From the NCBI RefSeq assembly GCF_058153355.1, contig NZ_CM177019.1: DNA of 64,000 nt. One strand, written 5' to 3'. The stretch's first letter is position 1. Each line of letters opens with the position of its first letter. The position numbers were made by a program. Positions 3,001 to 6,000 of this stretch are shown piece by piece.

Positions 3001-6000
3001 CGCGAAAAGGAGACAGCGAAGAAAAACCAACCGGGAAAATGGACGTAAAAGGCTCTGGAGCGATAACAGACCTGACAGACAACCTTTTTATCATCTGGCG
3101 TAACAAGGCTCGCGAGAGAGCGTTACAGAGAGTTCAGAGTGGTGAAAAGATGTCAGAGAAGGACGAACAGTTACTGGCGTCTCCTGCATCTGTTTTGATG
3201 CTTGAAAAACAACGTAACGGCGAAGGCTGGGAAGGTGGTGTCCCGTTGTTCCTTGACGAGCAATCGCACCAGTTCCTGCAACTTGAATCAGGATCGCCAT
3301 ATAGCTACATCGCCAATATGCCGAAATCGGAATATGACGAAGCGTGGCGACAGGAAAACATAACGGAGTATTAAATGACCATCTACATCACAGAGCTTAT
3401 AACAGGTCTGCTGGTAATCGCAGGCCTTTTAATTTGGGGGAGAGGGAAGTCATGAAAAAACTAACCTTTGAAATTCGATCTCCAGCACATCAGCAAAACG
3501 CTATTCACGCGGTACAGCAAATTCTTCCAGACCCAACCAAACCAATCGTAGTAACCATTCAGGAACGCAACCGCAGCTTAGACCAGAATCGAAAGCTTTG
3601 GGCTTGCCTTGGTGACGTCTCTCGTCAGGTTGAATGGCATGGTCGCTGGCTGGATGCAGAAAGCTGGAAGTGTGTGTTTACCGCAGCATTAAAGCAGCAG
3701 GACGTTGTTCCTAACCTTGCCGGGAATGGCTTTGTGGTAATAGGCCAGTCAACCAGCAGGATGCGTGTAAGCGAATTTGCGGAGTTATTAGAGCTTATAC
3801 AGGCATTCGGTACAGAGCGTGGCGTTAAGTGGTCAGACGAAGCGCGACTGGCTCTGGAGTGGAAAGCGCGATGGGGAGATCGGGCTGCATGACTATCAAA
3901 TCAAATACGCCAGCACACGACAAGGACTGCTGGCAAACGCCACTTTGGCTTTTTGATGCGCTGGATATTGAGTTTGGATTCTGGCTGGATTCGGCAGCGA
4001 GCGACAAAAATGCTCTGTGCGCTCACTGGCTAACTGAGGCCGACGACGCGCTCAATTCTGAGTGGGTAAGCTACGGTGCAATCTGGAATAATCCACCGTA
4101 CAGCAATATCAGGCCGTGGGTGGAAAAAGCCGCTGAGCAGTGCATACAACAGCGACAGACGGTAGTTATGCTTGTGCCAGAGGATATGTCAGTCGGATGG
4201 TTCAGCAAGGCTCTGGAGAGTGTTGACGAAGTTCGCATCATCACTGATGGACGGATTAATTTTATCGAACCATCGACAGGGCTGGAGAAAAAGGGAAACA
4301 GTAAAGGCTCAATGCTGCTGATTTGGCGACCGTTCATCAGTCCCCGGCGAATGTTTACTACCGTATCCAAAGCGGCATTGATGGCGATCGGGCAGGGCGT
4401 CAGGAGGGCGGCATGAGGCGACAGCGACGAAGTATTACCGACATAATCTGTGAAAACTGCAAATACCTTCCAACGAAACGCTCCAGAAATAAACGCAAGC
4501 CAATCCCAAAAGAATCTGACGTAAAAACCTTCAACTACACGGCTCACCTGTGGGATATCCGGTGGCTAAGACATCGTGCGAGGAAATGACTATTTATCCG
4601 GTGCGCCGCCAGAATGACGGCGCGGTGTGGTTAAACGAAGCGGATCTGGAGTTTTTTTCCAGTAGCGCGGGCGAATTTTTTTAGGGTGGCAAATGATGGG
4701 CCGCTGATACCTGATGCGAGATTACTTTCCATTCTGGTGATCGCGGTCGCTTTTGTTCCCATTCGCTCGGCAACTTCAGCCTGAGTTAAGCCAGCTTCTT
4801 TGCGTGCTGCCAGCATTTCATCAAGCAGTGCGAATTCGTCAGCGATAGCGTCGTATTCTGCTTTAAAAGCCGGGTCTTCCATCCATTTGGCTGCCATTTC
4901 GTCGTGTGTCATGGTGGGGAGAGTGCGTTTACCAGTCATGCTTAACCTCCTTCATTCTGGTTTCAGCTTTCTTGCGTTCGGCTGGCGGTGTTTTCTGCGT
5001 TTTCTTTACAAAACTATGCAGCATGATGATGCGTTTCCCTGTCAGAGTGCAGTAAAAAACACGCGCGATCCCATCGTTGCCTTTAATTCTGAGTTCGAAA
5101 AGCCCGTCACCAAAGGCGCTGGTGTGAGGTTCTCCGAGATTGCTGCCATATACCTTCATACGTTCAACGAGATGTTGGTATCGGGCACGCATACTCAATG
5201 GAAGCCGATCGACTTCCAGCCTTACATCTTCACTGTAGTATTCGATAGTGTAGTTCATAGGTATCAACATAACAAAATCGTTATATGCATTCAAGGCCTG
5301 TAGTTGACGACAACACATATCCGGGGCTATATTCCTCATACGCCAGCAAAATCTGGCGTCGGGATTGAGACCCCGGATGTTTACGGAGCGATATGAGACG
5401 CGCCCGCGTCTTTTTTCATATCGTTTGCACAGTCACATTCGCGATTTATGGTGGGCTGTGTGGGGGAGCCGAAAGGCTCGCCGGTTTCCGTACCCGGTAG
5501 TCTCAACCCTGCACAGCTCGCCACCAGATGATTGAGACCAGAAGGTGGCGATAATGACCAAATGTACGGAGTTATCGTTATGCTCACTCAAATTTCTGTC
5601 GACACTCTTCCTGCAATCACCCACAACCAGATCCCCGTTATTACAACTGAACTTCTGGCGCAGTTATACGGAACAAAAATCAAAAACATTTCTGATAATT
5701 TTCTGAACAACACGACGCGATTCGTGGTAGGAAAGCATTACTTTAAAATTGAAAAAAACGAATTACGCGAGTTTAAGAACAGACCCGAAACAATCGGGTT
5801 AGTTGGTAAAAATGCCCGCTCTCTTATCCTCTGGACAGAACGAGGCGCAGCCCGCCACGCAAAAATGCTCGAAACCGATCAGGCGTGGGACGTGTTCGAA
5901 AAACTGGAAGACTGCTATTTCAGCCAGACTTCGAAAAGCGCAGGTCATCACGAGAAGAAAACCAGCGAGCTTTCTGCAAAAGATGCAAACAGTCTGGTAT

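Follow-up and report, generated by a model that had tools for sequence, protein, structure and literature searches.

Terminator tR2 of bacteriophage lambda is among the most studied intrinsic terminators, and both its activity and the suppression of that activity by N-type antitermination are known. It was first described together with ninA, the small gene that contains it, by Kroger and Hobom in 1982 (as cited in PMC4824070), and is positioned 30 bp past the NinA AUG and 16 bp ahead of the NinA stop codon (Li et al. 2016, PMC4824070). In reporters, the efficiency of tR2 was about 0.9 when a stop codon lay some 28-30 bp or more upstream and less than 10% when the stop codon lay 5 bp upstream, the low value being explained by a terminating ribosome that blocks folding of the hairpin (Li et al. 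2016, PMC4824070). Natural upstream sequence performed better than random sequence (0.8 at 18 bp versus 0.12 at 17 bp), and efficient termination was also seen at terminators less than 100 bp into an open reading frame (ORF) (PMC4824070). The ninA initiation site was itself active in this system and was judged 'not weak': its presence halved expression of the upstream reporter, mutation of the ribosome-binding site (RBS) or the AUG restored expression, and the loss was attributed to non-stop translation on terminated transcripts, while translation of ninA lowered termination at tR2 by only about 10% (Li et al. 2016, PMC4824070).

A second point of reference is the leader/attenuator of the Escherichia coli pyrBI operon, which resembles ninA in that an ORF spans an intrinsic terminator and a following ribosome could in principle block the hairpin. 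The two systems differ in that ninA has no pause sites or metabolite sensing, and in that ninA is chained to its flanking genes whereas the pyrBI leader stands alone.

Annotation of ninA is uneven among lambdoid phages. The gene is annotated in phages 21, P22, Sf101, Nil3, HK620, ECP1 and mEp234; in phage 21, record AJ237660 labels the ORF NinA, and a recent record describes it as 'similar to lambda Orf26'. A terminator inside ninA is annotated in phage 21, in Nil3 (as 'tR2') and, with the wording 'similar to phage lambda', in the curated record of P22. The ORF is unannotated in RefSeq lambda and in the E. coli genome records examined, which carry NCBI automatic annotation. Gene callers commonly apply a cut-off of 90 nt, of which the 81-bp ninA falls short. 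An unannotated ORF of this kind can pass for a new membrane micro-protein when it is in fact ninA with tR2, and the main value of the present case is for annotation.

Here we describe such a locus in a 64,000-nucleotide stretch of DNA (the window) from contig NZ_CM177019.1 of RefSeq assembly GCF_058153355.1. The interval 3375-3455 is the long-known lambdoid gene ninA with a tR2-type terminator inside it, and is as such an ordinary, already known finding. Its features, in window coordinates, are as follows:

1494..3374, + strand: upstream gene, a primase-helicase of 626 aa whose stop codon TAA (3372-3374) abuts the ninA ATG
3365..3368, + strand: ninA Shine-Dalgarno (SD) motif GGAG, 6 nt ahead of the ATG and within the last primase codons
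3375..3455, + strand: ninA micro-ORF, 26 codons and 81 nt, a homologue of lambda ninA/Orf26 (PHROG 5907)
3375..3403, + strand: stop-to-hairpin spacer formed by the first 10 ninA codons, 29 nt from the upstream stop to the hairpin
3404..3427, + strand: tR2-type terminator hairpin, AGGTCTGC / loop TGGTAATC / GCAGGCCT
3428..3435, + strand: terminator T-tract, TTTAATTT (lambda counterpart TTTTATTT)
3439..3446, + strand: purine-rich ninB SD region, GGAGAGGG, read in the ninA frame as G-R-G of the basic tail
3452..3892, + strand: ninB (Orf recombination mediator), 146 aa, whose ATG overlaps the ninA TGA as ATGA

The encoded peptide is MTIYITELITGLLVIAGLLIWGRGKS. A first-pass annotation of this DNA had placed a hydrophobic 26-codon ORF here, with its start against the primase-helicase stop and its own stop overlapping the start of ninB. 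The ORF is confirmed, and both contacts are exactly as described: the TAA directly adjoins the ATG at 3375-3377, and the TGA at 3453-3455 shares two positions with the ninB ATG at 3452-3454. That reading had recognised the ORF and its two junctions, and had overlooked that the ORF is ninA and that codons 10-21 are occupied by tR2.

Database matches agree with these assignments. The 626-aa upstream protein contains Toprim_2 (E 3e-12) and DnaB_C/AAA_25 domains in Pfam, and is labelled 'toprim domain-containing protein' in RefSeq; the 146-aa product of 3452..3892 is NinB (PF05772, E 1e-54). The 26-aa peptide matches phrog_5907 over residues 1-26 (E 1.5e-17) and is 92-96% identical to the annotated NinA of Sf101, phage 21 and ECP1, while Pfam has no family for the peptide and Rfam none over 3375-3455. 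The function of PHROG 5907 is listed as unknown. At the nucleotide level, the module is 95% identical to those of Sf101 and phage 434, and 75 of its 81 nt (92%), encoding 25 identical residues out of 26, are shared with lambda 40567-40647. Since the first 8 kb of the window contain 124 ORFs of at least 20 aa, a 26-codon ORF alone is not beyond chance; it is conservation that lifts this one above the background.

The closest counterpart is lambda ninA with tR2 (40567-40647), which likewise has 26 codons, a hairpin and T-tract at the same codons, and an ATGA overlap onto ninB; the lambda ORF reads ATGACCATCTACATTACTGAG...GTCATGA. In lambda the upstream gene is ren, joined to ninA by ATGA, in contrast to the Toprim primase-helicase joined by TAA|ATG in the window. 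The terminators also differ slightly, with stem GGC, T-tract TTTTATTT and F19 in lambda, and GGT, TTTAATTT and L19 here. In the terminator scan, the window hairpin has an 8-bp stem with 5 G-C pairs and an 8-nt loop, at -13.5 kcal/mol compared with -15.7 kcal/mol for lambda. It departs from lambda tR2 at 1 of 24 hairpin positions, where a single G-U pair stands in place of G-C, and at 1 of 8 T-tract positions, where a T-to-A change turns Phe19 into Leu. Because of the G-U pair and the interrupted T-tract (UUUAAUUU), the window terminator may be weaker than lambda tR2. Its geometry agrees with that reported for lambda (Li et al. 2016).

Other phages extend the comparison. Sf101 NinA also follows a primase-helicase, and the whole primase-ninA-ninB arrangement is held in common with Sf101 and mEp043 at 97.7% identity. 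P22 ninA (BK000583, 34673-34753) has an internal terminator and is alike in its module and junction logic; its codons 2-10 depart from the common lambda type at five sites, four of the changes being synonymous, and its stem and T-tract are of lambda type, with an identical hairpin. The ninA of HK97 gp56 type (MTIYITELITGAIYTVALFYWIKNEGDPDGHR) belongs to PHROG 5907, and shares the first 10 codons and the presence of a hairpin and T-tract in a 12-codon slot; its stem, GGGCTAT/GTAGCCC, is unrelated, its tail is longer and acidic, and its stop codon lies 14 nt past the start of the next gene. A third, rare type (class C) is absent from the phage collection. The three hairpins are:

lambda type: GGCCTGC-TGGTAATC-GCAGGCC, -15.7 kcal/mol
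HK97 gp56 type: GGGCTAT-TTACACA-GTAGCCC, -12.6 kcal/mol
rare type (class C): GGCCTATC-AGCAAC-GATAGGCC, -15.2 kcal/mol

These three unrelated stems share an identical 12-codon slot (ACA...TGG) of the same length, with a T-tract after each. Among 15 distinct lambda-type and rare-type haplotypes, a small sample of closely related sequences, pairing is kept in 97.5% of cells, with two compensatory pairs and three pairs that vary solely through G-U.

Taking these observations together with the published reporter data, we consider it probable (about 0.8) that 3375-3455 represents lambdoid ninA acting as a short linker ORF, translated and with a Rho-independent terminator of the lambda tR2 type inside it, by which translation along the nin gene chain is carried across that terminator. 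Early rightward transcripts carrying the replication genes would end at tR2 unless RNA polymerase had been modified by the phage antiterminator. The first 29 nt of ninA set the distance between stop and hairpin that, according to the published data, is needed for full termination, and this spacer would keep the ribosome finishing the upstream gene too far away to block hairpin folding. On read-through transcripts, ribosomes would re-initiate at the ninA ATG, cross the terminator and pass to ninB at the ATGA, such that translation of ninA would keep the 'chain of interlinked genes' unbroken. Terminated transcripts would lack the ninA stop codon, and ribosomes would run off their 3' end; full-length NinA would be made solely from read-through (antiterminated) transcripts, because the ninA stop lies 17 nt past the T-tract.

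Translational coupling, which had been proposed from the two contacts in the window, is strongly supported by the wider comparison, with stop and start joined at both ends in nearly every context. Upstream of ninA, 17 sequence variants represent nine unrelated gene ends, all of which stop at -3 to +1 of the ninA ATG, in the forms TAA|ATG, TGATG or ATGA. When the upstream sequences were clustered at 25% divergence, giving 10 contexts of which two are variants of P, all 10 had an SD-like motif at -14 to -7, within the 3'-terminal codons of the upstream gene itself. The anti-SD duplex energy was -5.8 kcal/mol or lower in each of these contexts, whereas only 11.6% of background positions reached -5 (Mann-Whitney p = 2e-7 for contexts versus background). 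Downstream, about 12 different genes follow ninA, and some 10 of the 12 have starts that overlap the ninA stop or lie within 5 nt of it (ATGA, GTGA, GTGGCTGA, ATGGTTAA and ATGATGA), the C-terminal tail of ninA varying accordingly. Upstream and downstream classes reassort freely, with roughly 40-50 combinations seen, so that the module behaves as a conserved, portable junction cassette between the replication and nin modules. This is one of three modest points added by the comparison, the others being the spacing role of the first 29 nt and the uncharged peptide kept through hairpin replacement. The ninB SD region is kept even at ninB loci that have neither ninA nor the terminator. Having an SD of its own, ninB may be able to dispense with coupling.

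The comparison drew on three locus sets, anchored on an identical NinB protein, on the hairpin core, and on a degenerate N-terminal pattern. Combined, they yielded 224 ATG-bearing copies, which fall into 166 unique contexts and encode 67 distinct peptides. The 81-nt module is present in 415 phage records, and the phages that carry it (about 400 records) are all lambdoid or P22-like phages of Escherichia, Shigella or Salmonella. A megablast search with positions 3100-3750 matched 237 phage records and 1506 of 5426 complete E. coli genomes; homology begins exactly at 3375 in most of these matches, behind ren, P, a DnaB-like helicase or a primase. When one genome per species was scanned for the degenerate N-terminal pattern, 68 matches were obtained, most of them by chance, and no new hairpin class emerged; the true matches came from Escherichia albertii, Escherichia sp. 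E1V33 and Shimwellia, together with two probably contaminated metagenome bins. Of 80 loci whose NinB protein is identical, about 17 have neither ninA nor terminator, and others have the hairpin without the 5' half of ninA. These loci without the module, the tolerance of a split of ninA by an endonuclease gene and the effect of ninA translation on tR2 of only about 10% are points against the linker explanation.

Loss of the frame in close relatives through indels or stops had been named as the observation that would speak against the ORF. None of the 224 copies has a stop or an indel ahead of codon 20, and single-nucleotide indels occur in the tail of about 6. The missing nonsense mutations and indels in codons 1-20 are uninformative on their own, since by our estimate diversity at the level seen here would lead one to expect only about one nonsense mutation and one indel.

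Whether the peptide matters in itself is a separate question. The first-pass annotation had predicted a single transmembrane helix; the hydrophobic core is real, and as a membrane helix it is of borderline quality in this peptide and scores poorly in variants of the HK97 and rare types. The best 19-residue segment has a Kyte-Doolittle value of 2.09 and a Hessa-scale sum of about +0.2 kcal/mol, and contains E7; the uncharged run, between E7 and R23, is 15 residues long. The lambda type gives a summed Hessa-scale insertion energy of +0.2 to +0.5 kcal/mol, and the HK97 and rare types give one of +2.7 to +2.9 kcal/mol. In the ninA frame, the stem, loop and T-tract are translated as G-L-L-V-I-A-G-L-L-I and the ninB SD region as G-R-G-K, so that most of the 'transmembrane helix with a basic tail' consists of translated RNA signals.

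Two comparisons nevertheless hint at selection on the peptide, for which the evidence is modest. Outside the hairpin, in codons 2-10, 12 of 23 distinct variants are synonymous against an expectation of 26-30% (p 0.006-0.02), in a test restricted to loci whose ascertainment was independent of these codons. The other two frames of codons 2-10 show no synonymous excess, the variants fall on codon positions 3, 1 and 2 as 12:8:3, and the recurrent non-synonymous changes are all conservative (I to V, L to I, I to M, T to A). Within the hairpin, the six inner residues carry no charged or strongly polar side chain in any of the three natural types, so that replacement of the hairpin has kept the encoded peptide uncharged. 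Among simulated stop-free hairpins with the same flanks, frame and stability, only 5.6% avoid such residues; the null is crude, and the flanks of the three classes are related by descent. The peptide is likely to be mainly a by-product of the hairpin, T-tract and SD sequences with some selection for its uncharged character, and the synonymous enrichment and the uncharged hairpin versions suggest that it is not purely a by-product.

These same data bear on the alternative that NinA has a role in its own right as a small membrane peptide, at the host envelope or in exclusion for instance, and that the terminator is merely overprinted on it. The enrichment and conservative replacements in codons 2-10, the uncharged inner residues of all three hairpins compared with 5.6% in simulation, the conserved SD motifs, and the 34-aa hydrophobic ORF recreated at the left junction of an HNH insertion (see below) would all fit such a function. 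Against it, each segment of the ORF can be explained at the nucleic-acid level, as spacer, hairpin, T-tract or SD for the gene that follows; the C-terminal tail is free to vary with whichever gene lies downstream, and bears indels in about 6 of 224 copies; the uncharged run is short, with an insertion energy that is borderline in the lambda type and unfavourable in the HK97 and rare types; and the simulation rests on a simple null, while the hairpin classes have flanks of common descent. Moreover, the nin region is non-essential (PMC8022706) and ninA is missing from many ninB loci. The searchable literature yielded no experimental detection of the NinA peptide, and PMC5737525 makes no mention of ninA. 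We regard the membrane-peptide interpretation as possible but weak and, as a complete account of the locus, as doubtful; the coupling interpretation, by contrast, is supported.

A more speculative extension, to which we give somewhat less credence, treats ninA as doubly coding, with 36 nt shared by a terminator and a micro-peptide that is uncharged and under selection. On terminated transcripts the ORF might then act as a non-stop trap, by which tmRNA would be recruited and the replication-gene mRNA would decay sooner, with either the peptide or the trap timing early expression. If the peptide or the non-stop effect were functional, the locus would be a compact case of RNA structure and protein overprinting.

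Returning to the linker reading, its account of the terminator may be set against a pyrBI-type arrangement, in which a ninA-translating ribosome close behind RNA polymerase would block tR2 and termination would be set by the tightness of coupling. The ORF does run through the terminator as the pyrBI leader does, and ribosomes near tR2 do abolish termination (less than 10% with a stop 5 bp upstream; PMC4824070). Silencing of ninA initiation, however, shifts tR2 efficiency by only about 10%, and terminators in the first 100 bp of an ORF work efficiently (PMC4824070). Neither a U-rich pause run nor a run of regulatory codons was seen in 3375-3403, and there is no conspicuous alternative anti-terminator helix, the complete ORF folding no more stably than its shuffled versions (z = -0.8). 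A pyrBI-like regulatory role for ninA is unlikely, and as an explanation of the locus it would be very much so.

That the ORF is accidental, the region being a non-coding terminator followed by the ninB RBS, is the least credible proposal: chance short ORFs are abundant, the region is open in two of three frames (in that of ninB back to a GTG at 3344) and the ORF is left unannotated in RefSeq lambda and in automatic E. coli annotation, but correctly spaced SD motifs are present in 10 of 10 upstream gene ends, stops and starts are joined at both ends over about 40-50 gene combinations, the ninA RBS and AUG are active in a reporter (PMC4824070) and the mosaic boundary falls exactly on the ATG.

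In some phages, ninA is split without obvious harm by an insertion of about 690 bp that carries an HNH homing endonuclease gene. The loci that retain only the hairpin and a seemingly hairpin-less 34-aa variant are the two ends of this one insertion. The variant MTIYITELIAGLSLLMVLTVYIIKYILYANKKTN was considered as a ninA lacking the terminator, and hence as proof that the peptide is selected, and this was rejected because it is the left junction of the HNH insertion, at which the 34-aa hydrophobic ORF is recreated, and because the hairpin survives just past the HNH stop codon. An in-frame fusion of the HNH gene to the C-terminus of ninA was likewise rejected, the gene being in another frame and ending in a TAA located 1 nt ahead of the G-C stem. 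In L085, the N-terminal ORF of ninA occupies positions 740-844 and the HNH gene positions 822-1433, and the HNH stop codon overlaps the closing A-T pair of the hairpin.

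The ninB reading frame extends upstream across the intrinsic terminator tR2, with 36 open codons preceding the ninB ATG as far as a GTG at 3344 (window 3344-3451, + strand), so that only one of the three frames is closed across the terminator, by a TAA in the hairpin loop.

In some phages ninA is split by an AT-rich HNH homing-endonuclease gene of about 690 bp, inserted between nucleotide ~32 of ninA and the hairpin, and at one compared locus, L085, other small hydrophobic reading frames lie downstream of the split gene (coordinates are those of L085):

740-1453, HNH insertion in ninA; also in Stx2a phages F349, WGPS4, WGPS6 and SH2026Stx1
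1481-1687, example of small hydrophobic ORF(s) after ninA

The stop codon of the HNH gene ends 1 nt 5' of the G-C stem of tR2 and overlaps the hairpin's closing A-T pair; with a stop codon so near the hairpin, termination is expected to be repressed, judging from published data relating tR2 efficiency to this distance (PMC4824070). The left junction of the insertion creates a new hydrophobic ORF of 34 amino acids.

Many Stx-type and other lambdoid phages have further small hydrophobic ORFs, not ninB, following ninA, among them 68-aa proteins (MVNWML.../VAELIFSAL...) and a 108-aa protein (VADWQIPI...). There is an 8-nt overlap between their GTG or ATG start and the stop of ninA; fusions to ninA through 1-nt indels are rare.

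Lambdoid ninA modules of the E. coli type were also found on two contigs of metagenome-assembled genomes, one binned as 'Cellvibrionaceae' (L251), identical to the common lambda-type, and one as 'Bacillota' (L305), identical to the HK97-type as far as the variable tail. Both modules most likely reflect bin contamination.

Elsewhere in the window, several further elements were located within and beyond the nin region:

4631-4939, -, HTH_3 protein ORF
4929-5339, -, Gp49/DUF891 ORF (HigB-like toxin family)
5340-5416, +, isrK sRNA (Rfam)
5444-5528, +, C4 antisense RNA (Rfam)
5532-6257, +, antirepressor ORF (ORF6N and P22_AR_C domains)
8691-8846, +, tRNA-Asn (GTT) and tRNA-Thr (TGT) genes
51411-51558, +, group II intron D1-D4 (Rfam)
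53641-53717, +, group II intron catalytic domain (Rfam)
58836-58912, -, naRNA4 (REP-type element)
62580-62673, -, MicF RNA

The two overlapping minus-strand ORFs, both within the nin region (4631-5339), probably constitute a toxin-antitoxin or abortive-infection pair. With the isrK and C4 antisense RNA matches immediately 5' of the antirepressor ORF, the stretch 5340-6257 looks like an antirepressor module under antisense control, resembling P1/P7 immI or Gifsy isrK-anrP.

Shortly 3' of the Q antiterminator gene (7813-8469) lie the two tRNA genes. The Rfam group II intron domains within 51411-53717 indicate a mobile group II intron in the window. The naRNA4 and MicF matches place the window's right end in the host chromosome, close to ompC/micF, so the prophage ends ahead of this portion.
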